From the NCBI RefSeq assembly GCF_036702645.1, contig NZ_JAUBUO010000016.1, positions 92,186 to 152,338 on the forward strand: DNA of 60,153 nt, written 5' to 3'. A model generated the notes under the pieces. That model did not search any database. It was not told where the DNA came from and was given only the letters and a program-made list of their open reading frames with translations. How positions within the stretch are numbered: the first letter of the stretch is position 1; every line of letters starts with the position of its first letter. Positions 20,695 through 60,153 of the stretch are shown here, one piece after another. The position numbers and the translations under genes are program-made. Origin of the DNA: Microcoleus sp. Aus8_D1 (GTDB lineage: Bacteria > Cyanobacteriota > Cyanobacteriia > Cyanobacteriales > Microcoleaceae).

Positions 20695-20742
20695 ACTGTG
20701 TGTTGAAGCTATCTTATTAACTCTAGTTATCATCTAAAAATA

Positions 20743-22985: not shown

Positions 22986-22991
22986 TTTGAA

Positions 22992-28999: not shown

Positions 29000-29149
29000 A
29001 TTCTGCAAAATTATGATGAGCGGTTAGTCTTCCAGCGACCAGCAGAATTTTATCGGGAATTAGGCGTATCCTATCTTGAAATTGCTGACTTATGAGTACA
29101 GAGATGAAGCCCATAGTTAGGTCAAGGAAGTTTTTTCCAAGTTTATGTT

Positions 29150-31681: not shown

Positions 31682-31691
31682 TGGTAAGTTT

Positions 31692-32914: not shown

Positions 32915-32948
32915 AGTCAACAATCAACAATCAACAATCAACAATCAA
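32915..32948. repeat. Heptanucleotide STR (CAATCAA)x4.5 ending 3 bp before the epimerase start
   Basis: gtcaacaatcaacaatcaacaatcaacaatcaaccc. Confidence 0.8.
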
Positions 32949-32951
32949 CCC

Positions 32952-33899: not shown

Positions 33900-33998
33900 A
33901 AGGTGCTGAACCTACTCATCTGCTGAAGTGCTAAGTCAGCAGATGAGGTTATATGCACAGTAAATCTTCGCGAATAATCAACTTAAAATTATCAAGCC

Positions 33999-35063
33999 AT
34001 GAAAATCCAATTTATTGATTTAAGCAGTCCTTTGTGGCTAGAAACTCTGGATAATCTCAGACATGATTTTTATCATTTACCTGGCTATGTGGATTTAGAA
34101 GCAAAAAGAACCGAAGCAACCGCAGAAGCTATTTTGATTGCTGATGATGACAAAATATTCTTTTTGCCTTATTTATTGCGAAAGTGCAATAATTTATTTG
34201 CAGAGACAGTAGAAGTTTTTGATGTTATATCGCCCTATGGCTATCCGGGATTTTTGTTAAATGAAGCCGCAGCTAGCACTCCTGATTTTTTTATCTTGGC
34301 AATCGAAAATTTAACACAGGCCTGGCGCGATCGCAATATTTGTTCGGCTTTTTTACGGCTGCATCCTATTCTCAACAAGGATGTTAATACTTCGATAAAC
34401 AATGACTTGTTTACACTCAATGGAGAAACAGTTTCTGTAGATTTAACACTCGAACGAAGTGAAATATGGAGTCAAACTCGCTCTGAACATCGCAATAAAA
34501 TAAATAGATGCGTCCGCGAAGGTTTTTCGGCTAAAATGGTTCCTATTCAGGAATATATTAATGATTTCAACGCGATTTATGAGGAAACAATGGCTCGGGT
34601 TGGGGCTGCAAAGTTATATTATTTCGGAACTAATTATCTGGTAAAACTCATCGATGTATTAGGAGATAAATTGCATTTATGTATGGTAGAATTGAATGGA
34701 GAAATTACCTGTGGTGGTTTGTTTACTGAGTGCTGCGGCATCGTTCAGTATCATCTGGGTGGTACGAAGTCAAGCTTTTTGAAACAAGCACCCACTAAAC
34801 TAATGTTTGATTATGTTCGATTCTGGGCTAAGGAACGCGGTAATCAAGTTTTCCATCTAGGCGGTGGTTTAGGAGGTTCGCAAGATAGTCTCTACCATTT
34901 CAAAGCAGGTTTCTCTAAGCAAAGACACACTTTTTTCACCCGACGCTTAATTACAGATGAAGAAAAATATCTTCATTTAGTTAACCTACGTGCAAAATAT
35001 CTGAAGATCGAGGTGGAGCATCTACTGAATACCAATTTTTTCCCTGCATATCGCTCTAACTGA
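33999..35063 (+). CDS. FemAB/CelD-like GNAT acyltransferase, intact copy
   Basis: Conserved YHLGGTKSSFLKQAPTKLMFDYVRFWAKERGNQVFHLGGGLGGSQDSLYHFKAGFSKQ block typical of the FemAB-like Acetyltransf_6 family. Confidence 0.7.
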   Translation: MKIQFIDLSSPLWLETLDNLRHDFYHLPGYVDLEAKRTEATAEAILIADDDKIFFLPYLLRKCNNLFAETVEVFDVISPYGYPGFLLNEAAASTPDFFILAIENLTQAWRDRNICSAFLRLHPILNKDVNTSINNDLFTLNGETVSVDLTLERSEIWSQTRSEHRNKINRCVREGFSAKMVPIQEYINDFNAIYEETMARVGAAKLYYFGTNYLVKLIDVLGDKLHLCMVELNGEITCGGLFTECCGIVQYHLGGTKSSFLKQAPTKLMFDYVRFWAKERGNQVFHLGGGLGGSQDSLYHFKAGFSKQRHTFFTRRLITDEEKYLHLVNLRAKYLKIEVEHLLNTNFFPAYRSN

Positions 35064-43423: not shown

Positions 43424-43745
43424 AGGGTGTGTCGCCTGCGAAGAATCCCTAACTAAATATCGAAAATCTCAAAGCTCCGCACCTGTCAACTCGCCCGATC
43501 GCCAATAAAGTCGATCGCCTACAATCAAGTATTCGGGTGTGTCGCCACAAAAAATCCTTAGCCAAACATGAAAAATCTCAAAGCGACGCACCTGTGAACT
43601 CGCCCGATCGCCAATAAAGTCGATCGCCTACAATCAAGTATTCGGGTGTGTCGCCACAGAAAATCCTTAGCCAAACATCGAAAATCTCAAAGCGACGCAC
43701 CTGTCAACTCGCCCGATCGCCACTAAAGTCGATCGCCTACAATCA
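43424..43745. repeat. Tandem array of ~3 copies of a 109-bp unit immediately upstream of the NACHT gene
   Basis: acctgt(c/g)aactcgcccgatcgccaataaagtcgatcgcctacaatcaag... recurs at 43481, 43590 and 43699. ORF 43320..43508 and the 43648 start extension are repeat artefacts. Confidence 0.85.
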
Positions 43746-43785
43746 AACTAACCCGCTTCGAGCAGCGCATCAGGAGAACCGTCAA

Positions 43786-46700: not shown

Positions 46701-47607
46701 AGATGACAATACGATGATTAAATTGGCATATAGCTTGTCAAAATCAGTAACAAACAACTCTCTGATACTCGCAAATTTAGATAATTGCGACGAGCTTATT
46801 GGTACTTCTGAGGATGACAATACCTGGAGAAATGCCCTAAATATCTTAGGAAAAATCGAAAAAGATAACTCAGTTGCGCTCTCAGCTTTAGTCGAGTTAA
46901 TCGGTACTTTTCAGGATAAAAATACCCGGAGGAGAGCGACTGTAAGCCTAGGGCAAATATGCAAAAACAACCCGGATGCGATCGCCGCTTTAGTCGAGTT
47001 AATCAGCAATTCAGGTGATAGACATATCCGTAGTATAGCGGCAGATAGCTTAGGTGAAATCATGAAAGATAAACACTTCGCGATCGCAGTCTCTGGTTTG
47101 AAAGATTGCCTAACTTCCGAAATCTACAAAAACGACTTTACTCTTTATCACAAGTGCTGCCTCGTCATCTCTGACTGTGCCCAAAGCAAGACTTACCCAG
47201 AATTTTATCAAGCATGGCACACTCAACCCACCAATTCCCCAATACCGGACAACCACCCACAAAATCCAGATATCCCCACACTCCTAAAACAACTCAAACC
47301 CACAGATAAAACCTTCCCCGTACCCCTCAACATTCGCGCGTTAGAAGGCGAAACCGATATAAGCCCGATCGCCCAAGAACTCTGTACCCAACTATATCAA
47401 ACAATCTTCCCCGCAGATACAGACATCCCCGCCATCCGCAACGCCCCGGAATTCAAGCGATTAATCCCCCAACTCAAACACCGGCTGCAAAAACCGCACA
47501 TCGCCTTAATCTTGCACTCGTGCCCGTGCGAAAATGCGCTTTCGTCTTTCACCCGCAAACTCGCCGACTCTCACATGGGTATTCATATCGCCTGGATTAG
47601 CGATTAA
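43786..47607 (+). CDS. STAND NTPase: unknown N-terminal domain + NACHT + C-terminal HEAT (PBS-lyase-type) repeats
   Basis: Walker A GEPGAGKTTLLRQIANW and Walker B VWLVLDGADEM. At least 8 HEAT-like repeats (AIEALVELIRSSQDEDTWKQAAKSLGEIG...). Start at Met47 of the track ORF, after the CAGGAGAA RBS. Confidence 0.85.
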   Translation: MSDPITLGLLFTVAWQGILGTQVNDAAKHLCLTGIKKISRNGKIVNHDLEKALKTSFLKAQQQIASECKQEIDPKNSANRESFSYSLQDRRRDFDWLKRKLEKLKLDLEQVNKETVPSGIPIEGLDEIELLLTATDELKQNRVAAVEQKLLEVALENCDVAHYKTKLEQELFALVAAYFAQEIKENEKVFQIFTGQTLTRIDTTTQEMYAWLEEIVQKSRIVYQPIDWRAICQQILDEKEQQRLSSNQLTFGDRQIDDVYVPLGLVERHKVTQRREDLAAEEGSDLYREKEVTQTFENKEFLEQVLRGGSSPKSNGKRLAIIGEPGAGKTTLLRQIANWVAEEISEAIVIWVALADLQGKDLESYLFDTWLLAAIKRVGKAEATADIKDDFLAQFNAERVWLVLDGADEMAAGDGNPLAEIQRQVRTGGCVQRARIVLSCRQNVWDAIGSALDTFDTYRTLEFSYPEQVEMFIDKWFGTPPNPPLLRGGTREEGDTFARGLSTQATGEGNTLTPPLARGAGGVLPPSIPTQNTEETLTPPLARGAGGVLSQQLREALAASGKERIQDLVKNPLRCSLLCGTWQSLDGDLPDTKAKLYRRFVTALYQWKEPRLNWSQQQDLNAALGKLALAGMLNETDRFQLRESVGYRVMGASQFEIACRLGWLNLVARDAETAEGIYAFYHPTFQEYFAALAAEDWHFFLNHFPGNPQHPDARYRIFEKQWKEVILLWLGREEVGKEEKEAFIKALVEFEDGCGKFYGDRAYFLAAAGIAEFKDCSFADEIVSQVIKWGFGYFDEEKQEWQTFIAPLAESSWDILKETDRKRAIVALVESIRNSGNEKTRWIAANILGEISKDNPVAIEAFVELIRNSQDENTRREAAASLGTIGKSNPVAIEALVELIRSSQDEDTWKQAAKSLGEIGEDNPVAISGLVKLIRNSGEQNTRMTAANSLGKIDINNLVILVNFDELSATSEDDNTMIKLAYSLSKSVTNNSLILANLDNCDELIGTSEDDNTWRNALNILGKIEKDNSVALSALVELIGTFQDKNTRRRATVSLGQICKNNPDAIAALVELISNSGDRHIRSIAADSLGEIMKDKHFAIAVSGLKDCLTSEIYKNDFTLYHKCCLVISDCAQSKTYPEFYQAWHTQPTNSPIPDNHPQNPDIPTLLKQLKPTDKTFPVPLNIRALEGETDISPIAQELCTQLYQTIFPADTDIPAIRNAPEFKRLIPQLKHRLQKPHIALILHSCPCENALSSFTRKLADSHMGIHIAWISD
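45232..45425. repeat. Three copies of a near-palindromic mini-element CCCCCCTT(A/G)GC(A/T)AAGGGGGG embedded in frame in the NACHT gene
   Basis: 45232-45252 in one orientation; 45315-45352 and 45388-45425 as a 38-bp direct repeat in the other. They encode PPLLRGG / PPLARGAGG. Confidence 0.75.
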
Positions 47608-47640
47608 GCAGGCGAAAACCATGTTATACTGATTTTATGG

Positions 47641-47666
47641 TTTAACCCCTTAAATAAGGGGTTAAA
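47641..47666. repeat. Island palindrome family, copy 1 (TTTAACCCCTTAAATAAGGGGTTAAA)
   Basis: Perfect 11-bp arms. Related copies at 49302, 51469, 51682, 54661 and 57558. Confidence 0.8.
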
Positions 47667-47750
47667 TACCAGGCACATTCTAGTCATTATCTAGAAAGTA
47701 TCTAGAAACCCAGAACCTTGACAAACCAATAGTCACAGAGAGAACCTACC

Positions 47751-49202
47751 ATGAAAGCTCAATCTCAAAAGGCACAGTCCGCTTGTGATGTATCTGTTTA
47801 CTCTGACAAAGGGTCACTCGCCTTGCGCTTCCCCAAGCGCCATAGCACCCTGTGGGAGCTACTAGACGGTAAATCACTCAAGGGTAAGCCTAAGTGCTTA
47901 GGAATAGGCAAATACGGCTACTCTGATACCCCAGAGGATTGGAAGCGGGCTAGCCAAATTGCTGCTGCGATGGAGGCTGATTTAGACCATCCAGAGTGGG
48001 AAAAGCTGTTTGACCCTACCCTTGCTAAATATGGCTTAGGAGGGGGCAAATATGCTAAGTTAGCTGATGTACTTCAATTGCCGGGTACGACTCAAACCGT
48101 ACCTGAGATAACCGTAGGTGCGATGTGGGAAGCATATCTATTGTGGAAAAAAACAACCATAGAAGAAACTACTTTTGACACAACGTACAAAAAATATGGC
48201 AACATAATTTACGGTAAAATTTTTCAAAACAAGGGTAGTCAGTTGACACTATCTGACAACCCGCTAGCTACCGTTCATTTAAATGACAAACAGGGTATTG
48301 AAACCGCGCTTGATTCAATAACATCCAAACTCAAAACTTTGAGTTTGAGAGCGTTAAATCAAGCCTTTGAGTATGCCCAATCAAAAGGATTAATCGTTAA
48401 TTCGGCTACTAACAATCCTTTTGCTACTAACAAATTTAGCGTACCTGTTGTCACAACACAGCAAAAGTATGCTGACAAAGTAGTTAATGGTGAGATTGTA
48501 GAATGGCATGAAGTAGAGGATGAGAAAGCTTTAGAGAATGATAAGCGTGCCTTTACTAAGGATGAACGTGATATCATCATCAAAGCGTTTTATGAGTCTG
48601 ATAGCAATAGAACTCGCAAAGGTTCTATCATGTTTGCACCGTTTATCGAATTTCTGTTTTTAACGGGTTGTCGCCCTAGCGAAGTTTATGCACTAACTTG
48701 GCGTGACGTTAATTTTGAACGTCATGTTATCAAAATTAGTAAGTCACTAGGTGCTTCTACTCGCAAGGTTAAAAACACTAAGACGGGCGAGAGCCGCTTG
48801 TTTTATTTTGAAGATTTTGAACGTTTAAAAGCTTTGTTGTTAGAAATTAAAGGCGACAAAACAGAGGGTTTAATTTTTTCAAATGCCAATGGGGGGTATA
48901 TAGATACTTCTTCCCTAGGGAGAGTTTGGCGTGATTATGTAAAAAAACAAACTCTCAAATCAGGGGAAGAAGTAACGTATTTCTATCCCGGTATAGTCTC
49001 ACAATTGGCTCGTGAAGGCAAAATTAGTGGTTATTTAGCGTCCTATCATTGCCGTCACACTTACATCACGCTAACCGCGCAAGCTAATAGCCACAATAAC
49101 AACGCTCTGTTACGCATAGCTAGCAGTTGTGGCAACAGTGTGGATGTGATTCTAAGACATTACTTAGGTATTAATGAGTCAACAGAGTTAGTAGTAGTCT
49201 AA
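47751..49202 (+). CDS. int: Tyrosine-type site-specific recombinase / integrase
   Basis: Catalytic box SYHCRHTYITL (HxxR) and VILRHYLG (Tyr); LTGCRPSEVYALTWRDV arm. First gene of the HIP1-free, AT-rich region. Confidence 0.85.
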   Translation: MKAQSQKAQSACDVSVYSDKGSLALRFPKRHSTLWELLDGKSLKGKPKCLGIGKYGYSDTPEDWKRASQIAAAMEADLDHPEWEKLFDPTLAKYGLGGGKYAKLADVLQLPGTTQTVPEITVGAMWEAYLLWKKTTIEETTFDTTYKKYGNIIYGKIFQNKGSQLTLSDNPLATVHLNDKQGIETALDSITSKLKTLSLRALNQAFEYAQSKGLIVNSATNNPFATNKFSVPVVTTQQKYADKVVNGEIVEWHEVEDEKALENDKRAFTKDERDIIIKAFYESDSNRTRKGSIMFAPFIEFLFLTGCRPSEVYALTWRDVNFERHVIKISKSLGASTRKVKNTKTGESRLFYFEDFERLKALLLEIKGDKTEGLIFSNANGGYIDTSSLGRVWRDYVKKQTLKSGEEVTYFYPGIVSQLAREGKISGYLASYHCRHTYITLTAQANSHNNNALLRIASSCGNSVDVILRHYLGINESTELVVV

Positions 49203-49221
49203 CCCTACCCAGTACATACCT

Positions 49222-49249
49222 ACCTACCCTAACCCGGTAGGTTTTTTTG
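49222..49249 (+). terminator. Intrinsic terminator after the integrase gene
   Basis: ACCTACC-ctaaccc-GGTAGGT followed by TTTTTT. Confidence 0.55.
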
Positions 49250-49738
49250 TGCCTACTTACTGAGTGAACCTGTAGGTCATATCATCAGTAAATATATAAC
49301 TTTATCCCCCCCAATATGGGGGGATAAATAATAAAAATATTACAGCTACTAATCAAAACTGAACCCCCCTATATTTAAATAGATAAGTTTTATTAATGAA
49401 GTGAGTCGCTATCCTTTCCCTTCATTTTTTGCAATTTATAATCACTCATGCTCTTAATCGCCACAGAAACAGCCATTTTTGCCTCCTTTAAGGCTTGAAA
49501 GGTACAAAACCCTGGGGGGGATTTATTTTTCTTTACTACCTCTTTCTACCCACTATTTTTGTATCTCTCTGTTCATGTTTTTTATCTAGTTAGTTAGTTC
49601 TAATGCAATATTTCCGTTACATTGATTTACAATTACTCTAATTTTAATATTAATAAAACTTATCTATTGTACTCCCCTATACTCGTAAATGTTTACAAAT
49701 CTTACATATGTACATCACTTAAATAACACTGTTTAATG

Positions 49739-49767
49739 TTGACAACGATGTTACCAACCTATAAAGT
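49739..49767 (+). promoter_or_regulatory. Near-consensus sigma70-type promoter TTGACA-N17-TAAAGT inside the gene-poor AT-rich stretch
   Basis: Seen directly. No plus-strand ORF for ~800 bp downstream, so it may drive an ncRNA, possibly antisense to minus ORF 49862..50101. Confidence 0.3.
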
Positions 49768-50556
49768 TCCGTAATCCTGTACTACTAAATCCGCTTTATT
49801 TACCCACAAAAAAGTAGACCAACTGAGATTGACCTACTTTGATTTACGGTTTAATAGTGCTTTAGCCGTTACAGTAAACAAAACGGATAATAGCACCTTG
49901 TGGTTTCAAATGTTGGTTGTGTTCGTCTAATTTAATTTTCCACCATCTCCGACGGCATCTATCAATTATGCTATCGCCATCCTTAAGCGCTTCTAGCTTA
50001 TAAGCAGGGACGTACCTATTCTTTGTCAGGTAATGAGATGTTACTATGTGTTCCCAATAATGGGGCATAGAGACGGGTGTATTCTCGTAATTCACAATCA
50101 TTCTGCCACTTCCTTGTTCAGAATACTTTGCGCTTAAATCGCTGGCTGTTTTCAGTATATGTCAAAATATTTCAAAACCATATAGGTTTACAAAATCAGT
50201 ATAGCGTTAAAATGGACTAAAACAGGGTGTAAATAGTAAATATAAAAATAGCCAATAAAAAACCCTCCTATTCAACTTTTTTGTACCTTTTAGTCTAATT
50301 AAGTAAGCTATAATAAATAAACCATATTAGCGACTTACGCTACAAACAAAGGTTATATAACGAACTTTTATTTTTTCTGTACCATTACCCGTAACAAAAC
50401 TTTACAGAACTTAACGGTTATACCGTTGACAAGCGGCTGCAAACCTGCAATCGTGAGTAACTAAGGAAGATTGATGCGCGGTAATGCGGTTTTGACGAAC
50501 CACACTAACCACGACTTCCCCAAACGTTTACAACCAACGATTGGAACAGAATAACT

Positions 50557-51162
50557 ATGACAGATTTACCGTTATCAAGTGATTTGCGATCGCAAATCGT
50601 AACGTCCGCGTTAGAAGAGCGAGAAGAATACTGTTCGGCACGTAAAAGCCTAGGTTTCAACTCAGGTTTTGTTTTTGGTAACTTGGGTGCTGGGAGTTTC
50701 GAGTTCTACAAACAGCTTGCTAAGAAACTAAATATAGATTCCTATGCAAAATGTTTCGGCAATGTAACCATGACTGAAACATGGAAACGTCTAGTGCATT
50801 ATGAGGGTGAGTTTCCTCCTCCTGAATCGATAGAGCGAACAGAGCGAAAAGCGAAGTTACCGAATGAGAGTCCACATATCGCTCTTAAAAAAGCGACTGT
50901 AATGGAGGAATACTTAGGGAATTCCGACAAAGCTCAAATAAACATGGTAACTGACATCACCCCACAAAGTATTTTACAGTTACCGATATTGCCTCTTTCT
51001 TCACTCCATTTTTTACCTCCTTCTCGTGGTTTGTTCTTTGTGATGGTAAGCAAAACAGAACCAAAAGTTATTTATGTAGGCAAATCTCAAAACTTAAAAG
51101 TTTCTTGGGAACCTGTTTATACCCGTAGCAGGTGTCCAATTGCAGGACACAGAAAGCGATAG
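50557..51162 (+). CDS. Hypothetical protein with a GIY-YIG-like C-terminal motif, followed in the same frame after one TAG by ORF 51172..51402
   Basis: LFFVMVSKTEPKVIYVGKSQNLKVSW resembles the GIY...YVG motif. 51172 is in frame with 50557, so this may be a disrupted gene. Confidence 0.35.
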   Translation: MTDLPLSSDLRSQIVTSALEEREEYCSARKSLGFNSGFVFGNLGAGSFEFYKQLAKKLNIDSYAKCFGNVTMTETWKRLVHYEGEFPPPESIERTERKAKLPNESPHIALKKATVMEEYLGNSDKAQINMVTDITPQSILQLPILPLSSLHFLPPSRGLFFVMVSKTEPKVIYVGKSQNLKVSWEPVYTRSRCPIAGHRKR

Positions 51163-51400
51163 GTAACTACCTTGACCAACTTAGGACTTGACTTGTATAT
51201 TAGGTGGATACTTTTACCCGGCGGTAACGAACCTTCTGTGTGGCAAGAAGACATTGACAGTAGCCAACTTTCTTTGTGGCAAGCTCACGCCAACAAAGTG
51301 CTTAGTCCCTTCTTTTTGGGTAGGGAAATAGGAGATGAAATTACTTTAGACTGGGATTTACCAATGCCTCGCCACTGGCAACAAATCTCTAGAAAAGAGT

Positions 51401-51884
51401 AAGTTTGTCAGGTTAGGTAAAGTTAATATGCTAATGAGTCCTTTGGGTAGGGGGACTCATTTTTATTGTTTATCCCCTTATTTAAGGGGTTAAAGTTAAA
51501 TAATAGATTATCAATTATCCTACATATTTTTACTCTCACCAAGTCGAAAATCACTACTCTAGAGTCTGCCAAGCATAGCGATATTTGTACTTTGTGTTAT
51601 GGCCTAAAATCAAAACCGGGTTTTTCACCCCAAAACGTCATTTTAATTTTTTATAAATGGGGGTTTTGGGAGTGTTTATGATTTATCCCCTTATTTAAGG
51701 GGTTAAAGTTAAAGTGCAAGATACTAAGCTAGATTTTAGAGGGTGTGGTGTCTAGATTATGCCTAGAAAGTGACAAGCCACAATTAAGCAATCTCAACAA
51801 CTAGGATAACGTAAATAGGTTAAATGACTAGAAAGTATCTAGAAATCAAGGATAGGATGGCTGAAAGCATTGGTAAATGGTAAC
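51401..51884. repeat. Left arm of the long inverted repeat flanking ppk; carries a 195-bp insertion (51496..51690) bounded by duplicated palindromes
   Basis: Reverse complement of 54487..54753 aligns at >95% identity apart from the insertion. Confidence 0.85.
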
Positions 51885-52051
51885 TAATCTGGATTAGCGC
51901 CACACCGCTGGAATTGCCGTTAACAGGTTTTGCGGTGGATGCAGAGGATTTGTTGGAGGCGGTGCAGGATTGGATTGCGGGGATTGGTGCGTGATATGAT
52001 GTTATGCCTTTGGGGCGGGCTAGAAGCCCACCCCACAAGAGTTTATACTCG

Positions 52052-52152
52052 TTACCAGGCTCTGCCTGGTAACGCAGATCCGGGAGGCTCTGCCTCCATT
52101 TTACCAGCCGAGGCAGAGCCTCTGAATATGGGTTCCAAGGCTCTGCCTTGGA
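52052..52152. promoter_or_regulatory. Cluster of four hairpins in the ppk leader with a conserved GGCTCTGCC core and covarying stems
   Basis: ttaccaggCTCTGcctggtaa (52052-52072), ggaggCTCTGcctcc (52083-52097), gaggCAGAGcctc (52110-52122, opposite polarity), ttccaaggCTCTGccttggaa (52132-52152). Confidence 0.4.
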
Positions 52153-52305
52153 ACCAGTTAAGTTTTAATTTCTTCAACCCCTCTGAGCTCGGGTTTTGTC
52201 TGTGTCGGCGCGATTTCAATCGCCCGCAACCGCCCCACTACCGCAATACTACTGCAATACTAATGGTAAAGATACAATCGAGCCTCCCCAAGACTCCCGC
52301 AAACC

Positions 52306-54486
52306 ATGTCCAAGCAAAAAAAGACCCCAGCCAAAACCTACACCGAAATCAACCTCAGCGACCCGCAATACTACTTCAACCGAGAACAAAGCTGGCTAGA
52401 ATTCAACAACCGCGTGCTCCACGAAGCCCTAGACCCCCGCACGCCCCTCCTAGAAAGACTCAAATTTCTCGCTATTTTTAGCTCAAACTTAGACGAATAC
52501 TTCATGGTGCGAGTAGCCGCACTCAAACAGCAAGTAGAAGCAAAAGTCAGTAAATTGACCTCCGACGGCCGCACGCCCCAAGAACAGCTAGATGCCATCA
52601 ACAAGCGGCTTTTGCCGATGGTTACTCAGCAACACTCGTATTTTGAGCAAACTCTGCGGCCCAAATTAGCAGCAAACGGCATCCACATTCTCGACTACAT
52701 TGACCTCAATCAAGAACAGCGAAATTACTTGCATCGCTACTTCAAAGAACAAGTATTTCCTGTGCTCACACCCCTAGCAGTTGACCCCAGTCATCCCTTC
52801 CCATTTCTATCCAATCTCAGTCTTAATTTAGCAGTAGTTGTCAGAGACCCCGACACCCGCGAAGAACTATTTGCGCGCGTCAAAGTACCGCAGGTTCTGC
52901 CCAGATTTTTGCCCTTACCGGAGGACTTGCAGTGGCAGCAGAGGGGCAAATCTCCTGTGTGGACGGGGGTACCTCTCGAACAGGTAATCGCCCACAATTT
53001 AGAGGCTTTGTTTCCGGGGATGGACATTCAGGAATATCACCCGTTTCGGATTACTCGCAATTCCGATTTGACTGTGGAGGAAGATGAGGCAGATGATTTG
53101 CTGCTGGCCATTGAACAGGAACTCCGCAAACGCCGATTTACAGGTTCTGCGGTGCGCCTGGAAATTCCAGCGATTATGCCGCCTGCACTGCGAGATATGT
53201 TGATGGACGAGTTGGATCTCGGCGAGCAGGATGTTTACGCCGTGGAGGGGCTGCTAGGCCTCAAGGATTTGATGTCTTTTGTCGGGTTGCCGGTACCGGA
53301 ACTCAAAGATCCGCCTTGGACTCCGGTGGTGCCGCCCCGCTTGCGGAACTCGGAACCGCCCAGGATGGTAGGTAAATCGATGTTGGATGTTGAGGAGGGT
53401 GAGGATATTTTCACGGCCATCCGCCAGGGCGATTTGATGCTGCACCATCCCTATCACTCGTTTGCAGCCACTGTCCAGCGGTTTATTACTGAGGCGGCGA
53501 ACGATCGCTCGGTGTTAGCGATTAAGATGACTTTATACCGCACTTCTGGTGATTCGCCGATCGTCAGTTCTTTAATTCAAGCTGCGGAAAACGGCAAGCA
53601 AGTAGCCGTTTTAGTCGAGCTCAAAGCCCGGTTTGACGAAGAAAATAACATTAATTGGGCGCGCAAGTTAGAACAAGCGGGCGTGCACGTTGTCTACGGT
53701 TTGGTGGGACTCAAAACCCACACCAAGGTGGTGATGGTAGTCCGGCGCGAGGACAGTTGCATTCGCCGCTACGTCCACATCGGCACGGGAAATTACAACC
53801 CGAAAACTGCTGGACTGTATACGGATGTGGGTTTGTTGAGTTGTCGCGAAGATTTGGGTGCGGATTTGACGGACTTGTTTAATTATTTAACCGGTTATTC
53901 CCGACAGCTATCTTATCGTAAATTGTTGGTGGCGCCTGTCAATATGCGCGAGCGTTTTTTAGCATTAATCCGCCGCGAAGCCGACTTCTGCCGCTTACAG
54001 GCCGAAGGCGGCACCGGTAGCTGCGGCCGGATTGTCGCTAAAATGAATGCTTTAGTTGACCCTCAAATTATTGTTGCTTTGTACGAAGCTTCCCAAGCGG
54101 GTGTTAAAATTGATTTGATTATCCGGGGGATTTGTTGTTTGCGTCCGGGCGTTGAGGGTGTTAGCGAAAATATCAAAGTTATCAGTATTATCGGCCGCTT
54201 TTTAGAGCATTCTCGGATGTTTTATTTTTTCAACGGCGGCAACGAAGAGGTGTATATTGGTTCTGCTGACTGGATGCAGCGCAATCTCACAAGGCGGGTT
54301 GAGGCGATCGTGCAAGTGGAAGATCCGACTATAGTGATGGAGTTGCAAGAAATTTTGGGTGTGATGTTGGCGGACAACCGCCAAGCTTGGGATTTGCAGT
54401 CTGGGGGACACTACTCTCAGCGACGCCCGCCTGCTAATAACCCGGAGGTGAGCTCTCAGCAAATTTTGATGGATATGGTAAATTAA
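52306..54486 (+). CDS. ppk: Polyphosphate kinase 1
   Basis: DPQYYFNREQSWLEFNNRVL N-terminus and conserved PPK1 histidine regions. GC-rich, unlike the flanking DNA. The stop codon sits at the inner edge of the right inverted repeat. Confidence 0.92.
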   Translation: MSKQKKTPAKTYTEINLSDPQYYFNREQSWLEFNNRVLHEALDPRTPLLERLKFLAIFSSNLDEYFMVRVAALKQQVEAKVSKLTSDGRTPQEQLDAINKRLLPMVTQQHSYFEQTLRPKLAANGIHILDYIDLNQEQRNYLHRYFKEQVFPVLTPLAVDPSHPFPFLSNLSLNLAVVVRDPDTREELFARVKVPQVLPRFLPLPEDLQWQQRGKSPVWTGVPLEQVIAHNLEALFPGMDIQEYHPFRITRNSDLTVEEDEADDLLLAIEQELRKRRFTGSAVRLEIPAIMPPALRDMLMDELDLGEQDVYAVEGLLGLKDLMSFVGLPVPELKDPPWTPVVPPRLRNSEPPRMVGKSMLDVEEGEDIFTAIRQGDLMLHHPYHSFAATVQRFITEAANDRSVLAIKMTLYRTSGDSPIVSSLIQAAENGKQVAVLVELKARFDEENNINWARKLEQAGVHVVYGLVGLKTHTKVVMVVRREDSCIRRYVHIGTGNYNPKTAGLYTDVGLLSCREDLGADLTDLFNYLTGYSRQLSYRKLLVAPVNMRERFLALIRREADFCRLQAEGGTGSCGRIVAKMNALVDPQIIVALYEASQAGVKIDLIIRGICCLRPGVEGVSENIKVISIIGRFLEHSRMFYFFNGGNEEVYIGSADWMQRNLTRRVEAIVQVEDPTIVMELQEILGVMLADNRQAWDLQSGGHYSQRRPPANNPEVSSQQILMDMVN

Positions 54487-54753
54487 CCATTTACCAATGC
54501 TTTCAGCCATCCTATCCTTGATTTCTAGATACATTCTAGTCATTTAACCTATTTACGTCATCCTAGTTGTTGAGTTTGCTTAATTGTGGCTTGTCACTTT
54601 CTAGGCATAATCTAGACACCACACCCTCTAAAATCTAGCTTAGTATCTTGTACTTTAATTTTACCCCCTTAAATAAGGGGATAAACCATAAAAATGAGTC
54701 CCCCTACCCAAAGGACTCATTAGCATATTAACTTTACCTAACCCGACAAACTT
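54487..54753. repeat. Right arm of the long inverted repeat flanking ppk
   Basis: Reverse complement matches 51401..51495 plus 51691..51884. Includes palindrome copy 54661-54686 and hairpin ATGAGTCC...GGACTCAT. Confidence 0.85.
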
Positions 54754-54758
54754 GATAC

Positions 54759-54953
54759 TTAGAGCGGCATAGCCTCATTGTTGCCGATACCAAGATTTAA
54801 CGCTTCAACCTGACTTTTTAACCCCGCGATGTCTGATTCGGTTAAATCCGATTCATTATCCATTTTCAGTTCGTTCTGAATAGCCGCAAGTTGACTCTTA
54901 TGGTTAATTAGAATCTCTAAGATAGCCTTTACAACAGCGAGCAAGGTTTTCAT
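54759..54953 (-). CDS. Hypothetical small acidic protein (64 aa), last gene of the minus-strand operon
   Basis: ORF in the operon context. Confidence 0.3.
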   Translation of the reverse strand: MKTLLAVVKAILEILINHKSQLAAIQNELKMDNESDLTESDIAGLKSQVEALNLGIGNNEAMPL

Positions 54954-55005
54954 GCGATTTATGTCCTATTTGCGGTTCTAAAGTTATTGTAATAGTTGTG
55001 TCCGG

Positions 55006-55209
55006 TTAATTCAACCTTTTAGCTTTGGCAATTTTAAGTTTCTTAACCAAGTCCCGTACAAATGTTTTCATATCTCCTTCAATTTCCAGTCCCATATTGC
55101 GCCGCTCTAAAAGCATATCCAATTCCCGTAGACGTACTAACTCTTCTATTTTTGACTTGACCGCTTTACTGATGTACTTTTTAGTACCTTTATCACCTTT
55201 TTTCGCCAT
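55006..55209 (-). CDS. Hypothetical small Lys-rich basic protein (67 aa), possibly nucleic-acid binding
   Basis: MAKKGDKGTKKYISKAVKSKIEELVRLRELD... Start lies 2 nt from the upstream gene end. Confidence 0.35.
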   Translation of the reverse strand: MAKKGDKGTKKYISKAVKSKIEELVRLRELDMLLERRNMGLEIEGDMKTFVRDLVKKLKIAKAKRLN

Positions 55210-55210
55210 A

Positions 55211-57547
55211 CTACACTCCTCTTAAGGCTTTAGATATTGAGATATTATTGGGGTCAAATTTCCACTTAACAATAGGAATGTTGCTAGGTTGCAACATTTT
55301 ATTTAATACGGCCTCAACTTCATTATCCGTCTTAGCTTTGCTAATATTAATTTTTTTAGGCTCGGATTTTTGAAAACCTTTATGAGATTCATGGATAGTA
55401 AAGCTCACGGGTACATCTTCAGTGTCCAAAATAGGTTCATATCCAATAGCATCTATGATGTATTCAACTTTTCTGCTTGTCTCGGCTAACGCGCTCATTA
55501 ATTGCACTAATTGCATAATTGCACTAATCTCAAACTTCTGACTGCTGTCGCCATTGGACATACTTTCCGCAACCATCTCATATATTTGCGATGCCCACGC
55601 CGTCGCATTGACATTTTGCCACTCGTTGCCTAGTGGCTTGCTAATTGGATTAATGATTAATCCATTGGCAAGCATCCTAAATAATGCTTGCGTCACGGCG
55701 TAATAATCCTCACATTCTTGATTTCCCTTGCCTCCTGCTACCATAAAGGCTTTCGCAACTTTAAATTTATCTTTTTTCATCTTGGCAATACCAAGATATT
55801 TGTATATCTCTTTAATCTCTTTACAACAATCCATAGGTTTTATCTTTGTAGGTTTATTAGGTAAGCGGGGTGGCTTGTATTTAGGTGTTGGTACTGGAAT
55901 ACAAGTGCTATTAGCAATTGTAACCTTAATTGTGTGGGTATATTCATAAAATGCCCACACTCCACTAGGTTCAAAATGTCCGCCAGTGCTATGATGTAGA
56001 GTTGAAAGGTAATCATACATTGCTTGCTCATCACCTTTCAACTCTACAAGACCACCACCTATACTACGACGTTCAATCAAACCCCACCCACTGACTGTAT
56101 CAGGGCGAGGGTCTACAGGAATATTAACCGTTGTAGACTTGCTTCTTTTGTAATTGTATGTACCAGGATTAGGTTCCACAAGATTCAGGTGCAAAAAGTC
56201 TGTCTTAGAAACAACTGTACCCGTAAGAATACCATTGCTATCATATGTACCGTTTACAATTGAAGAGAAGTTATCCACAACATCTCCAAATTGATAAGGA
56301 GGATTACCCGAATAATCTCCTTTCCAGTCATAATGAATTTTTTCGTAATTGTAAATAAGTTTACAAAAACTTTTTGTACCTATAGGATAGATTGGTGCGG
56401 GTTCGATTGGTGGTCTAGGTGGTTTAGGGAATGGACTCCCTGTTGGAGTCGGAGTTGGCGTAGGCGTAGGCGTAGGCGTTGGAGTAGGTGTATCACGCGG
56501 CCATGGTGATGGTCTAGGTGTTTTGGGACGTGGGTTAGGTTTAGGAGGAGGAGCGGGTTTAGGTGTTTTTGGCGTAGGAGTTTTAGGTATAGCTGTTGGT
56601 TTAGGTGGTTTAGGTGGTTTAGGTGGTTTAGGTGGAGTTGAAGGCTTCTTTAAATTAATTGGCGATGTATCGATTGGTTTTTTAGGGTTTATAGGTGATT
56701 TTTTCTTTAAATCAATTACAGGTTTCTTTTTAAGGTCAATTGGTGATTTTTTCTTTAAATCAATTACAGGTTTCTTTTTAAGATTTGTAGGTGTGCGTTT
56801 TTTCTCGAAACCTGTTGGTTTCTTTTTGGTGTCAAGCTGTGGTTTTTTGTCTGTTTTGGGTTGATCCGGTTTAGGTGTTTTGGGACGTGGGTTAGGTTTA
56901 GGTGTATCTTTAGTAGGTGTATCGGATTTAGGTGTTTTTGGTTGTGGTTTTTTACGTGCAGATTTATTATCACTTGGTGCATTAGGTCTAGGTGGTCTAG
57001 GTGATTTTGGGGAACGTTCAAAGTCTAATCTTGGTAGCTTTAAAGTGCCTTCATTTTGTGGGTCTCCCTTGTCTCTACTAAAAGTGGTACAGGCCTCTAT
57101 AATTCCAATACCAAAACAAGTTTTTAAGGTTTTACTACCACCCGCATCTCGTGCTAATTCAATACCAATACCAAAACCTTGAATCGAAATTGACGCATCG
57201 CCCAGACTACTACCACTTATACCTCCGCCAAAACCCAAAAAACTACCCGCAATGTTACCACCTATGGAATTTATAGTTCCATTGTCATTAAATTGAACAC
57301 TTGCACCTATTTCTGCACCTAATTTATTTTTAGCAGAACCTATGCCTGCGCTAAGTCCTGCACCTTTATTTTCTGGGTCAATATAGCCCGTTACGCGGTT
57401 ATTCCTAATAAACGCATCAATTCCTATTTCTACACTTGCATCAGTACGAATACCGCCTAAAGAGCCTATCGTGCGCTCTCCTTCTAGTGAAAGCTTTACG
57501 GCTCCATTACTACTTTGTTGTTGGCGTGGACTTCTTGGTGTTCTCAT
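55211..57547 (-). CDS. Large ORFan protein: Gly-rich N-terminal domain, ~230-aa Pro/Thr/Lys-rich low-complexity linker with 10-aa repeats (IDLKKKPV), ~400-aa C-terminal domain
   Basis: Clean 778-aa ORF. (TP)n and (PKP)n tracts. Palindrome copy 57558-57583 immediately upstream of its start codon. Confidence 0.6.
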   Translation of the reverse strand: MRTPRSPRQQQSSNGAVKLSLEGERTIGSLGGIRTDASVEIGIDAFIRNNRVTGYIDPENKGAGLSAGIGSAKNKLGAEIGASVQFNDNGTINSIGGNIAGSFLGFGGGISGSSLGDASISIQGFGIGIELARDAGGSKTLKTCFGIGIIEACTTFSRDKGDPQNEGTLKLPRLDFERSPKSPRPPRPNAPSDNKSARKKPQPKTPKSDTPTKDTPKPNPRPKTPKPDQPKTDKKPQLDTKKKPTGFEKKRTPTNLKKKPVIDLKKKSPIDLKKKPVIDLKKKSPINPKKPIDTSPINLKKPSTPPKPPKPPKPPKPTAIPKTPTPKTPKPAPPPKPNPRPKTPRPSPWPRDTPTPTPTPTPTPTPTPTGSPFPKPPRPPIEPAPIYPIGTKSFCKLIYNYEKIHYDWKGDYSGNPPYQFGDVVDNFSSIVNGTYDSNGILTGTVVSKTDFLHLNLVEPNPGTYNYKRSKSTTVNIPVDPRPDTVSGWGLIERRSIGGGLVELKGDEQAMYDYLSTLHHSTGGHFEPSGVWAFYEYTHTIKVTIANSTCIPVPTPKYKPPRLPNKPTKIKPMDCCKEIKEIYKYLGIAKMKKDKFKVAKAFMVAGGKGNQECEDYYAVTQALFRMLANGLIINPISKPLGNEWQNVNATAWASQIYEMVAESMSNGDSSQKFEISAIMQLVQLMSALAETSRKVEYIIDAIGYEPILDTEDVPVSFTIHESHKGFQKSEPKKINISKAKTDNEVEAVLNKMLQPSNIPIVKWKFDPNNISISKALRGV

Positions 57548-57657
57548 ATTTTTATTGTTTACCCCCCTATTTATGGGGGTAAAATGGTTAATTATTAGAA
57601 AATTTATTTAGTTCTATTTTAAAGTAACGTAATGATGCTTTACTTTTATTGATTAAA

Positions 57658-58734
57658 TTAAGCTACGTATTCAATAACTACATAAAAAGGTTTAGAAAGA
57701 ATACCCGCCGAGTTGGCAGATTCGTTAGTAATATAAATATTTGTGGCATCTCTCGCAATAATAGTATTAAAATTAAACTGCTTTCCACATAAAGGAACTA
57801 AAGAATCAGTTGCGTAAAAAACAACTCCACACGCGCTTATTACTTTAGTTGAATTTATTCCGTGGGCTACAAATATTGATGCGCCTTCAGTCGCTGCTGT
57901 AGTACCACTGATTAATTTCTTTTTTATAGCAACATTATCGCCTAATGAGGTAAAACCAAACAGGCGGAAATTTCCACTCGAATCAACACTAAAAATGTTA
58001 GCGACAATAGCGGAATAATTATCTGAAAGCCTCCTCATTAATAAATTTCCCGAGCTTGTCAACCCACAGTCAATCACTTTTTGATTAGTTGGGGCTTGAG
58101 CAGCCGAAAGAAACCAATACCCACCGCCACCGATACCAGTAGCAAACAATCCGGCTTGATTTTCTTTACTTACATCTGCGAGACTTTCTACTCCTTGTGA
58201 GCGAATAGATTGTTTGCTCGTCAACGACAAAGTAAAAATTTTAATGCCGTTGATAACTTGGTTAAGCGAGGCACTAACAAATTCTAAAGGATTGTGCCAC
58301 GTTCTGTCACCTTTTAGTAAATAACTTTCTTCACCTGCGGAGGCTCCCTTAACCAGCCCATTAGTACCGCCTGCAATTGGCGTAGCAGCGCCGAACAAAT
58401 TTAATAGATTTTCTAATGCAGCCAGCCTATTTGTTAATTCTGTTAAATCATTTTTTTTTGAGATTTCTATGGTGCAACCAAAATCAATAGAAATAAAATC
58501 CGTATCCCATAGCAAACCATCACCATAATCGACTAGCTGTATTGCTATTGCATCATTTTTTTCCATTATGCGGGTTGGATATCCTGTATAGCTGCGTAAA
58601 TCTAAATAATCTTTACGTCCCCTATTTACCAAAATTATCTCGGCTGCTTCATTCCAATCACCCGTATTGTTCTTTCGTTTTAATATTTTTAAGCCTATTT
58701 TATTTGAATTTGCTTCTGATTTATTCAACAACAA
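57658..58734 (-). CDS. Hypothetical beta-rich, Gly/Ser/Thr/Asn-rich protein (358 aa); tail-fibre or adhesin-like composition
   Basis: Clean ORF in the operon; no recognisable motif. Confidence 0.5.
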   Translation of the reverse strand: MLLNKSEANSNKIGLKILKRKNNTGDWNEAAEIILVNRGRKDYLDLRSYTGYPTRIMEKNDAIAIQLVDYGDGLLWDTDFISIDFGCTIEISKKNDLTELTNRLAALENLLNLFGAATPIAGGTNGLVKGASAGEESYLLKGDRTWHNPLEFVSASLNQVINGIKIFTLSLTSKQSIRSQGVESLADVSKENQAGLFATGIGGGGYWFLSAAQAPTNQKVIDCGLTSSGNLLMRRLSDNYSAIVANIFSVDSSGNFRLFGFTSLGDNVAIKKKLISGTTAATEGASIFVAHGINSTKVISACGVVFYATDSLVPLCGKQFNFNTIIARDATNIYITNESANSAGILSKPFYVVIEYVA

Positions 58735-58740
58735 AACTTT

Positions 58741-58947
58741 TTATGTGTCAGATTCATCGCCTTCAAATGTTGGAAATTGAGCAATATTAAAACTCCCTAA
58801 ATCCCTACTCGCATTGGCTGTATCTAAATAAATTGCTATACGCTCATCCGCATCAAATGTCATGTCGCGAAAATGAATGATTTCTAAGATCGTACCCGCT
58901 ACATAACTAGGTACAAATTTGGTTCCAAAAGTACGTGTAATTGTCAT
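58741..58947 (-). CDS. Hypothetical 68-aa protein
   Basis: Packed between operon genes with 6-10-nt spacers. Confidence 0.4.
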   Translation of the reverse strand: MTITRTFGTKFVPSYVAGTILEIIHFRDMTFDADERIAIYLDTANASRDLGSFNIAQFPTFEGDESDT

Positions 58948-58957
58948 TGGTTTCCTC

Positions 58958-59920
58958 TTAAGTTAGTAAAATAAAATCAGACAAGCCGTCACCAAAACCT
59001 TCGATAAGCCCTTCTAAGAGGTTGCCAAATGCAGGGTCTTTTTCTGTAATCTTTTCAACCTTATCCTCTACTTTTTGTGCAATACTCCAAGTTTGGCTTT
59101 CTTGTAAGCCCCAATTTTTAATCTTTTCATCAATAACTTTAATACCAGTGCGGACATTTTGTCGCGCATATTTTCGCAATTCTAAGTAACCTAACTTACC
59201 CGCTAGCGTTGTCGCGTATCTCATAAAAATGTTGGCAAGCTGCGAAAGCTCTTCTACTAATTCTTCCTCAATATTACTACCGTCTTGTTTCGCCGTAATT
59301 ATTAATGCGGCGGTAGCGGTAATTGAAATATTTAATTTAGGATTAGCTTTCCCTCCTCCTAGTGCAAGGCCTGCTAACATTCTACCTGTGCTTTCACCTA
59401 AATTATTAAGAAAACCTAGATAAGAACCATTCAATTCTGCGAGTATCGCAGCATCAGACTTTGCCCAATCGATATTATATACCGTATTACCAGTAGATAC
59501 TATTGCCTGTTGCAAAGTTGGTAGCATTAAACTTACCGCAACCCCACCTATTTTTATAGCTCCTAACGATGTCCACATAGCAGAAATACCCGATGATGCT
59601 ACAGCAAATAAGCCACTTGCAGACCCAATAAACCAACCTGCTACCGCTACCGCACCCGCGCCTGCAAGCGCACTTTTGGGGTCATCTCGAAACCATTGTT
59701 TGAATATGTCCCAATCACCCCTACCAATAGCGCTAAGAAGTTCTTTCCCGCCCTCAAACATTCGTTTACCTAAATCAATAGCAGATGAAATTCCCGATTT
59801 TATCGCACTCCATACTGCACCTGCTGCATCTTGTATCCATTTGTCAGGAGTGACACCTTCCAAAGAAAAGGCGAGTGCACTGGATTCTAGAGTTACGCCT
59901 GAGTTTGTATTTGTAACCAT
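58958..59920 (-). CDS. Hypothetical protein with a hydrophobic Gly/Ala-rich central segment (probable 2-3 TM helices, GxxxG-rich)
   Basis: AGAGAVAVAGWFIGSASGLFAVASSGISAMWTSLGAIKIGGVAVSLMLP. Confidence 0.5.
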   Translation of the reverse strand: MVTNTNSGVTLESSALAFSLEGVTPDKWIQDAAGAVWSAIKSGISSAIDLGKRMFEGGKELLSAIGRGDWDIFKQWFRDDPKSALAGAGAVAVAGWFIGSASGLFAVASSGISAMWTSLGAIKIGGVAVSLMLPTLQQAIVSTGNTVYNIDWAKSDAAILAELNGSYLGFLNNLGESTGRMLAGLALGGGKANPKLNISITATAALIITAKQDGSNIEEELVEELSQLANIFMRYATTLAGKLGYLELRKYARQNVRTGIKVIDEKIKNWGLQESQTWSIAQKVEDKVEKITEKDPAFGNLLEGLIEGFGDGLSDFILLT

Positions 59921-59924
59921 AATT

Positions 59925-60153
59925 TTAAGTGATTAACCATTCTGTAGCATTCTCTGAAATTGTACCGTTTGTTCCTAGTAAAGTAGCATAAGGTAATGAT
60001 AAATTACCAGAAAAAATACAAAGCGAGTAATCAAAACTCATTTGTACCCCAGTTACTCTTTGAGGATTTTTAGTAACGTTTTTTTGCCAAACTAATGCGT
60101 AACTAATTGCGTCAATAAAATATTGAGCTAACGTAGTCCCTTTAATAGTCCCT
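59925..60153 (-). CDS. Partial CDS (C-terminal end in window); first visible gene of the minus-strand operon
   Basis: Minus-strand frame open from the window edge to a TAA complementary to 59925-59927 (...GTNGTISENATEWLIT*). Confidence 0.4.
   Translation of the reverse strand, partial: GTIKGTTLAQYFIDAISYALVWQKNVTKNPQRVTGVQMSFDYSLCIFSGNLSLPYATLLGTNGTISENATEWLIT

Follow-up and report, generated by a model that had tools for sequence, protein, structure and literature searches.

Bacteriophage 21 and the e14 element integrate in icd of Escherichia coli, at the 3' end of a protein gene, and P4-like elements and phage-inducible chromosomal islands (PICIs) are phage satellites, of which a tail-fibre-like gene is atypical in the classical forms. 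The gene-interruption elements of heterocystous cyanobacteria (nifD, hupL and fdxN; XisA, XisC and XisF) have been surveyed and suggested to be phage remnants, and three cases are described in non-heterocystous cyanobacteria (PMC4874684). Here, a stretch of 60,153 nucleotides from Microcoleus sp. Aus8_D1 (assembly GCF_036702645.1, contig NZ_JAUBUO010000016.1, positions 92,186-152,338; hereafter the window) was analyzed with regard to its right end, which an earlier reading of the sequence (the original prediction) had described as a single horizontally acquired island with a tyrosine integrase as first gene. Our analyses indicate, with a probability of roughly 85%, that the right end consists of two related integrase-borne elements, named A and B, which are inserted in the ends of two resident genes and have the resident polyphosphate kinase gene ppk between them.

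The gene interrupted by element A is a resident NACHT/HEAT STAND NTPase gene (43,648-47,607, plus strand), which is truncated in the window and whose stop codon (TAA, 47,605-47,607) comes from the element. Pfam matches of the predicted protein were NACHT, HEAT_2, NCC-H and NCAB1, the last of which reaches only profile position 113 of 140 at the final residue. The nearest relatives of the locus were found by a scan with the ppk protein, with one genome per species, and the closest available genome was L001 (metagenome-assembled genome, MAG, SOY_34), a different species with approximately 90% nucleotide identity in ppk. Window positions 45,405-47,604 align to L001 138-2,439, positions 51,889-51,977 to L001 2,427-2,515 (91%), and positions 52,190-54,478 to L001 2,571-4,852. 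These alignments revealed that 4.3 kb of the window is absent in L001, in which the NACHT gene, a 150-bp spacer and ppk are contiguous, and that the flanking alignments overlap by 13 bp at a direct repeat. The NACHT open reading frame (ORF) of L001 also extends 90 nt beyond the point where the window ORF stops.

The direct repeat is an 11-bp sequence, CTGGATTAGCG, with only two exact copies in the window, both on the plus strand: the attL core at 47,592-47,602 and the attR core at 51,889-51,899. The uninterrupted site in L001 reads CTGGATTACCG. In-silico removal of A, by joining 43,648-47,602 to the sequence from 51,900 onwards, gave an open ORF of 1349 amino acids whose last 26 residues match L001, and the NCAB1 match grew from 14-113 to 14-138 of the 140 profile positions, with an increase in score from 51.3 to 75.7 bits. 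The displaced 3' tail of the NACHT gene (51,900-51,993, plus strand) still has an open frame, according to both the L001 alignment and the ORF join. The overlap at the repeat, the restored ORF and the completed NCAB1 domain therefore indicate an insertion in the lineage of the window and not a deletion in L001. Judged from these junctions, element A (47,603-51,899) is best described as a 4.3-kb site-specific insertion in the NACHT gene, located 31 codons from its end; it would have cut off the end of NCAB1 and supplied a new stop codon.

With respect to the original prediction, foreign DNA does begin at about 47.6 kb, with the true junction at 47,602/47,603, five bases before the stop codon that had been used as the boundary. 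The integrase, whose ORF (47,751-49,202) adjoins the left arm of A, is indeed the first gene of the insert, and the comparison with a relative, which had been named as the refuting test, favors insertion, because L001 is without this DNA at the NACHT site. A search for the right end beyond the window had been proposed, but the junction repeat recurs within it at 51,889-51,899, so that the element carrying the integrase measures only 4.3 kb. The attachment site had been called atypical or located elsewhere; there is in fact no tRNA target, but the sites do not lie elsewhere, as they are inside protein-coding genes.

Element B begins at the other side of ppk. Its right arm (54,480-54,753, minus strand) abuts ppk and starts directly after GATATGGT in the last ppk codons. 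The terminal 267 bp of B are the right arm of A in inverted orientation, with 96-97% identity: positions 54,486-54,692 are 97% complementary to 51,675-51,881 of A, and positions 54,654-54,753 are 96% complementary to 51,401-51,500. The alignment of this arm with the right arms of three other elements extends to within 7-10 nt of the repeats of those elements. The ppk protein of the window ends in MDMVN*, that of L001 in MDMALN* and the displaced tail in L002 in MDMVLN*, and the 3' end of ppk is uninterrupted in both L001 and L003; the last codons and the stop of the window ppk thus appear, on comparison of these ends, to have been rebuilt by B. The genes of B are collinear with L085 8,467-14,700, which is the distal half of a complete 15.8-kb element (CP181291.1). 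By comparison with that element, the ~5.7 kb of B in the window would be the distal part of another, larger member of the family, about 16 kb in length, which is located in the last ppk codons in the opposite orientation, and its integrase end is estimated to lie 9-10 kb beyond the window.

This interpretation makes predictions for the adjacent DNA. Beyond 60,153, B would show minus-strand homologues of L085 1,384-8,245 and a minus-strand integrase gene within 9-10 kb. Past this integrase, the left-arm motif CAGAACCTTGAMAAMYCAATA would be expected in reverse complement, together with a repeat that includes part of ACCATATCCATC and then the displaced ppk tail, ..GTTGAATTAG, and beyond the tail homologues of L001 5,418-7,747 would follow. 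Exact look-ups of the window integrase, of ppk, of the identical entry P0001 and of the identical fibre fragment P0121 returned no contig, and a metagenome scan with an exact 32-mer representing the window end gave no match.

The gene between the two elements, ppk1 (polyphosphate kinase 1; 52,306-54,486, plus strand), contains all four Pfam PPK domains and matches NCBIfam poly_P_kin with 870 bits. Its protein is 94, 92, and 89% identical to those of the nearest genomes, all of which belong to Oscillatoriales or Microcoleaceae. The orthologues in L001-L003 have a GC content of 0.49-0.50, like the window ppk, as well as a similar GATC count and no site of the highly iterated palindrome HIP1 (GCGATCGC). 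Because the nearest relatives of ppk are also those of the organism, with the same GC content and likewise without HIP1, and because its position in L001 is the same, the gene is considered vertically inherited. Read against the L001 order, the segment 51,900-54,486, which contains the last 31 NACHT codons and ppk, is resident DNA in its ancestral order and not cargo.

Some further observations concern this resident segment. An insert of 1.57 kb is present in the last ppk codons of L002 (positions 2,385-3,956; Oscillatoriales MAG GFS_6261); it consists of a left arm and an integrase gene only, is bounded by the repeats GATGAATATGG and GATGGATATGG, and has a HIP1 site in its integrase gene. Between the NACHT tail and ppk (52,051-52,155), two copies of a 23-nt palindrome were observed, GTTACCAGGCTCTGCCTGGTAAC and GTTCCAAGGCTCTGCCTTGGAAC, which have no counterpart in L001 and gave a chance match to an Rfam miRNA; they probably represent a small dispersed repeat of the host. 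At the other end of the window, positions 5,722-6,011 align at 70% to L001 11,323-11,530, remote from the syntenic position, and probably represent either a dispersed repeat or part of a paralogous gene. In addition, ppk and the NACHT tail are bracketed by the inverted right-arm copies of approximately 270 bp each, 96-97% identical (51,401-51,881 versus 54,486-54,753), and these inverted arms are a potential substrate for inversion of ppk via homologous recombination.

The integrase of A has more than 300 close homologues, almost all of them in Microcoleus or other Oscillatoriales, and among 1.84 billion representative sequences only 19 clusters matched it at E 1e-30. An identical protein (100%) is listed as 'MULTISPECIES, unclassified Microcoleus', several genomes contain more than one integrase copy, and many copies are found on very short contigs. 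Elements with defined ends comprise, besides A (4.3 kb, 11-bp repeat, NACHT gene), the 15.8-kb reference element of the complete Microcoleus chromosome CP181291.1 (L084 9,846 to L085 15,024), with an exact 16-bp repeat, GATATGTTGGAATAAG, in a SOUL-family gene; a 4.06-kb element (L087/88) that splits a Peptidase_M42 gene and has a 13/14-bp repeat, GTAAACCC(C)AGGGA, whose copies differ by one base insertion; and elements of 3.4 kb (L103, 16-bp repeat) and 4.5 kb (L151, 22-bp repeat), which interrupt a hydantoinase-like and a ferritin-like hydroxylase gene. An open frame was restored by in-silico deletion of A and of all four relatives, and the blocks of both arms are retained among elements with integrase identities of 53-75%. 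The family, which has mini (3.4-4.5 kb) and large (~16 kb) forms, was found only in Microcoleus-like Oscillatoriales; elements of this kind are known, but the integrase and element family itself appears to be undescribed.

Every one of the elements has a different core. A shared TGGAT-like core, which the first four junctions had suggested, was ruled out because the cores found later (GTAAACCCAGGGA, ACTTCGACAGATGTTG, and TACCGGAGTGTGATGGCTTCGG) are unrelated. All seven insertions lie inside coding sequence, a count that is not significant at a coding density of about 85% (P about 0.3, own estimate). The reference element contains the integrase gene, followed by nine genes on the opposite strand and nine on the integrase strand. 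Its opposite-strand genes include a Dam methylase, a 424-aa Walker-A protein (GEAGSGKS) and a PD-(D/E)xK nuclease-like protein, the latter two without a family match. The mini elements fit an origin as internally deleted large elements, because that of L087 shares the last gene of the large element. Apart from these, a small element of ~4.9 kb was observed in L090 (2,783-7,137), between a thioredoxin-like gene and an NTP-transferase gene, with a 462-aa integrase and a homologue at its far end of the 79-aa ORF (o79) of A described below. In three metagenome samples, the contigs (L081, L082, and L083) all break ~330 bp past the same integrase gene, which suggests that the DNA downstream of it is repeated or variable in these populations.

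The 148-bp left arm of A (47,603-47,750, plus strand) contains the motif TGTTATACTGA, a hairpin CCCCTTAAATAAGGGG at 47,641-47,667, an arm repeat CTAGAAAGTATCTAGAAA at 47,691-47,708 and, immediately before the start of the integrase gene, CCAGAACCTTGACAAA. The blocks TGCTATACTGA, hairpin CCCCTTAAATAAGGGG, TCTAGAAAGTATCTAGAA and CCAGAACCTTGACAAA also precede four integrase homologues from other genomes, with their order unchanged, and within the window the arm motifs are confined to 47.6-57.6 kb. The tyrosine integrase itself (47,751-49,202, plus strand) has 483 amino acids and was recognized by PF00589 (35.5 bits, cut-off 27.1) and by phrog_1 integrase (2e-27); a phmmer search against the PDB gave no match. 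Residues R308, K331/K344, H433, R435, and Y471 show no variation among 19 homologues, with H-x-R in place of the H-x-x-R spacing, and the usual H/W position is apparently N462 according to our own motif reading. The gene is followed by a terminator-like hairpin (49,222-49,242).

Downstream of the integrase, a small ORF of 27 amino acids (X; 49,393-49,476, minus strand), read from the sequence, is preceded by a perfect AAGGAGG, a strong ribosome-binding sequence; a related small ORF is present in the L087 mini element (4,576-4,695), on the other strand relative to the integrase. The next ORF, o79 (49,862-50,101, minus strand), is an orphan of 79 amino acids and the signature gene of the mini elements. 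Its protein is 88% identical to that of a 78-aa gene of L087, compared to only 75% for the integrases of A and L087, and it formed only four protein clusters in 5.8 billion sequences. With homologues too few for an alignment, a single-sequence AlphaFold model of o79 was uninformative (predicted local distance difference test, pLDDT, of 38). A non-coding block of 88 bp (Y; 50,288-50,375), which contains TATAAT, is 93% identical to L087 4,356-4,443, where it is inverted relative to the integrase, and is conserved better than the flanking genes. No RNA-structure signal was found in this block (z = 0.7), which is probably a promoter or operator. Translation of 50,557-51,402 (plus strand) revealed one frame of 283 codons, split by an in-frame TAG (51,160-51,162) into o201 and o76; the single HIP1 site in this region (50,586-50,593) falls within the frame. 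Neither Pfam, PHROG nor PADLOC gave a match for o201/o76, of which the segment GLFFV...VIYVGKSQNL resembles a GIY-YIG motif by eye only. The right arm (51,403-51,888, plus strand; 486 bp) comprises a terminator (51,433-51,461), two copies of the hairpin, the arm repeat CTAGAAAGTATCTAGAAA at 51,828-51,845 and GGCTGAAAGCATTGGTAAATGG, and relative to B it carries an internal insert of 174 bp (51,501-51,674). Two CTAGA..CTAGAA pairs and GGCTGAAAG..TTGGTAAAT are common to the right arms of A, B, L087 and L085, and right-arm conservation ends 7-10 nt short of the repeat of each element.

All ORFs in the visible part of B are on the minus strand. Next to the right arm are two small ORFs of 64 and 67 amino acids (54,759-55,209), the longer of which is weakly similar (36%) to an 85-aa gene of L085. 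These are followed by an ORF of 778 amino acids with a long Pro/Lys-rich linker (o778; 55,211-57,547), which is 39% identical over its full length to a 754-aa gene of L085 and gave only chance-level matches below threshold (Pfam Glutaminase, 17.7 bits with a cut-off of 27; NCBIfam PedR, 17.8 with a cut-off of 120). A tail-fibre-like, receptor-binding gene was read by translation at 57,658-58,947 as one frame split by a TAA (58,741-58,743) into o68 and o358; in L085 it is a single gene of 435 amino acids, with 52-70% identity over the N-terminal part. The remaining ORFs are an orphan of 320 amino acids with a hydrophobic central segment (o320; 58,958-59,920), 63% identical to a 320-aa gene of L085, and the C-terminal part of a gene cut by the window end (59,928-60,152), with 65% identity over 75 amino acids to a 165-aa gene of L085.

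According to the mechanism proposed here, A would have recombined through the 11-bp core inside the NACHT gene, with the integrase binding the core and the CTAGA-type arm repeats, as accessory sites, and catalyzing both integration and excision between the core repeats. Excision of A would then restore a full-length NACHT protein. The mini form may be a stripped derivative which retains only the integration module and integrates alone, and it may depend on a large element for transfer from cell to cell.

The possible viral nature of the large form was examined through its fibre-like gene. The homologues share the N-terminal ~110 amino acids and vary in the C-terminal part; some contain PF13884 (S74 chaperone domain), and 'pyocin knob' is the name given to one of them. 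For the L085 orthologue, the match was to a tail needle family (phrog_1219, 2e-11). In an alignment-based AlphaFold model, the C-terminal ~90 residues had pLDDT above 90, and this domain had 20 matches in BFVD at E<=1e-3; those bearing a name or an organism were all tailed-phage proteins, several of them tail-fibre or virion proteins, and several matches were unnamed. Matches in the PDB were weak (P1 baseplate, pyocin fibre). In a tblastn search against 50,697 phage genomes, o358 and o320 had no match and the integrase had only matches of 24-32% identity in its catalytic half, and IMG/VR scans with o320 and the integrase showed no relative. The only described Microcoleus prophage is an unrelated siphovirus of 62 kb, and a tailed phage would require more than 15.8 kb. 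Because a tail-fibre-like gene is present and capsid and terminase genes are unrecognizable, the large form is seen as a phage-derived integrative element, possibly a satellite. The near-identity of the right arms of A and B, which have nothing else alike, would reflect either recent gene conversion or functional mimicry. A more speculative and rather doubtful extension is that the ~16-kb elements are undescribed small temperate viruses or satellites specific to Microcoleus-like filamentous cyanobacteria, with a fibre of caudoviral type among genes that otherwise defy annotation, and that the mini elements are hitchhikers reduced to an integrase, two arms and o79, whose right arm is a near-exact copy of that of the large element (~270 bp) and gives access to its excision, replication or packaging functions; the window would then hold such a pair, 2.6 kb apart around ppk.

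Several observations weigh against the interpretation as two integrase-borne elements and against its viral aspect. The far end of B, its integrase and its second repeat lie outside the window, and its complete status and its core are deduced by analogy. The empty NACHT site is known from L001 only, and the window's own species is absent from the searched collections. Within ppk, B and the integrase-only insert of L002 share a target of ~12 bp but point in opposite directions, an arrangement not expected from simple site-specific insertion. Searches of the 18 genes of the reference element (PHROGs, Pfam) and of visible B revealed neither capsid nor portal nor terminase genes, and the label of phage or satellite is deduced from the fibre-like gene, the Dam methylase and the compositional signal. 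Finally, no excisionase was identified in the elements, and the in-frame stops in o201/o76 of A and in the fibre gene of B indicate that one or both elements may be decaying, although the stops may mark pseudogenes, sequencing errors or read-through sites.

The last two points lead to the alternative that survives best, namely that both elements have become fixed and are decaying, A as a dead mini element and B as a dead prophage fragment, so that they are immobile and owe the identity of their arms to gene conversion. The internal insert in the right arm of A and the integrase-only stump at the ppk site of L002 would also agree with it. On the other hand, the integrase ORF is intact, with its putative catalytic residues conserved, and several Microcoleus genomes encode an identical protein (100%); the two repeats match exactly, and the frame of the displaced NACHT tail has remained open; o79 is more strongly conserved than the integrase; and the same mini architecture occurs at four other sites with perfect or near-perfect repeats. 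Immobility is therefore regarded as possible but unlikely. Another alternative takes A and B as the halves of one element split by a rearrangement, with the NACHT tail and ppk trapped between them, as might be suggested by two nearly identical right arms in inverted orientation around a short host segment. It is very improbable, given that A has both arms and its own pair of repeats and is complete when compared to L087, L103 and L151, that the trapped segment keeps the order and orientation of L001, and that B ends in a right arm and not in a left one, which makes two right arms.

The composition of the right end bears on the single-island interpretation. HIP1 has 43 sites in the window, compared to 0.55 expected from shuffles, of which 42 lie at or before 47,080-47,087. 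To the left the density is 0.88 sites per kb, which would correspond to 11.7 sites in the last 13.07 kb (Poisson P(<=1) = 1.1e-4). The GC content is 0.37-0.39 in 48-51 kb and 54-60 kb and peaks at 0.51 over ppk. The near-absence of HIP1 and the drop in GC everywhere except ppk were thus correctly described by the original prediction, apart from the position of the remaining site, which is 50,586 and not 50,584. It was also right about the predominance of orphan ORFs and about the lack of a tRNA gene: the ORFs other than ppk and the integrase had no significant Pfam or NCBIfam match, their sole PHROG match being a weak one of the 358-aa ORF (E 9e-5), and ARAGORN found no tRNA or tmRNA gene in the whole 60-kb window. 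An Rfam scan of 47-60 kb returned nothing relevant, only the single chance miRNA match.

The spacing of HIP1 is also uneven on the left side, where two further HIP1-free tracts of 5.7 and 5.4 kb have a GC content of 0.38 (18,980-24,711 and 28,923-34,326); the absence of HIP1 and a low GC content alone are therefore no marker of a mobile element. When divided by segment, the HIP1 deficit is weak, with 1 site versus 3.8 expected in A, 0 versus 2.3 in ppk and the NACHT tail, and 0 versus 5.0 in B. A sharper signal at the right end is given by GATC. Its ratio of observed to expected sites was 0.07 in A (47,603-51,899; 1 site versus 15 expected, P 5e-6) and 0.10 in visible B (54,487-60,153; 2 sites versus 19 expected, P 8e-7), compared to 1.22 in the host DNA (1-47,602), 0.69 in the NACHT tail and ppk, and 0.85-1.06 in the two HIP1-free tracts. 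In addition, the tetranucleotide correlation with the host profile was 0.73 for A and 0.80 for B, and all host tiles of the same size had higher values (0.81-0.94). Avoidance of restriction sites is a known viral strategy, and the GATC avoidance of the elements fits a life exposed to restriction (PMC6286503). The reference element, which has its own Dam-type methylase, shows a milder GATC avoidance (observed/expected 0.47) and 10 HIP1 sites, unlike A and B. As for the two tracts on the left, the regions 18,519-25,718 and 29,150-33,899, HIP1-free and with a GC content of 0.38, encode a MurJ-type flippase, three GT4 glycosyltransferases, methyltransferases and an NAD-dependent epimerase, with host-like GATC content and tetranucleotide usage; they are a variable polysaccharide-synthesis cluster and not a mobile element.

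A single acquired island, extending from 47,608 beyond the window end with the integrase first and ppk as cargo, would account for a HIP1 deficit that spans the whole 13 kb, ppk included. It is hardly credible, however, as the NACHT gene and ppk are adjacent and collinear in L001, the junction repeat recurs at 51,889 with the NACHT tail next to it, the end of a second element abuts the ppk stop, the ppk orthologues of the nearest relatives are equally without HIP1 at the same GC content, and the GATC content of ppk is host-like; the proposal of the original prediction thus gives way to two elements flanking a resident gene. No more credible is an ancestral state in the window with a 4.3-kb deletion in L001, for which the single comparator genome at the NACHT site leaves room, because it would need the precise fusion of two fragments into an open frame with a complete NCAB1, the segment has an integrase at one end and exact 11-bp repeats as bounds, the same architecture interrupts unrelated genes elsewhere, and a precise integrase-mediated excision in the L001 lineage, itself possible, would amount to the same biology.

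Two elements around a resident ppk have several implications. The NACHT/HEAT STAND gene of the window would be a 3'-truncated allele that precise excision could restore. The suggestion that A inactivates a known anti-phage system was dropped, since the PADLOC matches of the NACHT gene had E values of only around 1e-4. In HIP1-rich cyanobacteria, island calls based on composition can combine adjacent insertions and the intervening resident genes into one island, and here GATC avoidance cleanly separated mobile DNA from polysaccharide genes, which the absence of HIP1 and low GC also mark. The family is common in Microcoleus, a genus which includes toxic mat-formers, and has precise ends, cores, two size classes and genes that are almost all unannotated; it offers concrete targets for the study of excision, transfer and a possible helper-hitchhiker relation.

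Compared to described systems, the elements share with tRNA-targeting islands and prophages an integrase at the boundary, flanking direct repeats, a deviant composition and a majority of orphan genes; they differ in that tRNA and tmRNA genes are absent at or near both junctions and each variant has its own core in coding sequence. An insertion sequence or transposon was ruled out, as the recombinase is a tyrosine integrase, the two arms differ and are not inverted copies, and the repeats measure 11-22 bp; at the sole site with an uninterrupted copy (L001), the repeat sequence pre-exists in the target. The elements recall P4-like elements and PICIs: they are 4-16 kb long, have an integrase at one end next to divergent small genes and no capsid or terminase genes, and include a Walker-A protein in the replication-like module of the large form, with a small and a larger form in one genome sharing cis-acting end sequences. 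In contrast to these satellites, homology to any satellite family was not found, no helper is known, and the fibre-like gene is atypical.

The closest mechanistic parallel is given by phage 21 and e14: there, too, a coding sequence has the core of a tyrosine integrase in its 3' end, receives a new end from the element and leaves its displaced tail at the other junction. In the present case, however, only a stop codon (NACHT, which loses 30 residues) or one residue and the stop (ppk) are supplied and no homologous replacement end, and the elements are much smaller, with no recognizable virion genes except the fibre-like one. No XisA or XisC name occurred among the named integrase homologues or cluster members, a comparison of names only. 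As in the nifD, hupL and fdxN elements, which are the nearest parallel among cyanobacteria, the size is a few to tens of kb, the location is inside coding genes between short direct repeats, a recombinase is near one end, and excision restores the gene, as in-silico removal does for A and its four relatives. Microcoleus is non-heterocystous, and developmental excision is thus not expected. The targets are also different from those of the heterocystous elements, being the NACHT, ppk, SOUL, Peptidase_M42 and other genes, and the two insertions of the window are so close to the 3' end that the interrupted gene probably still works.

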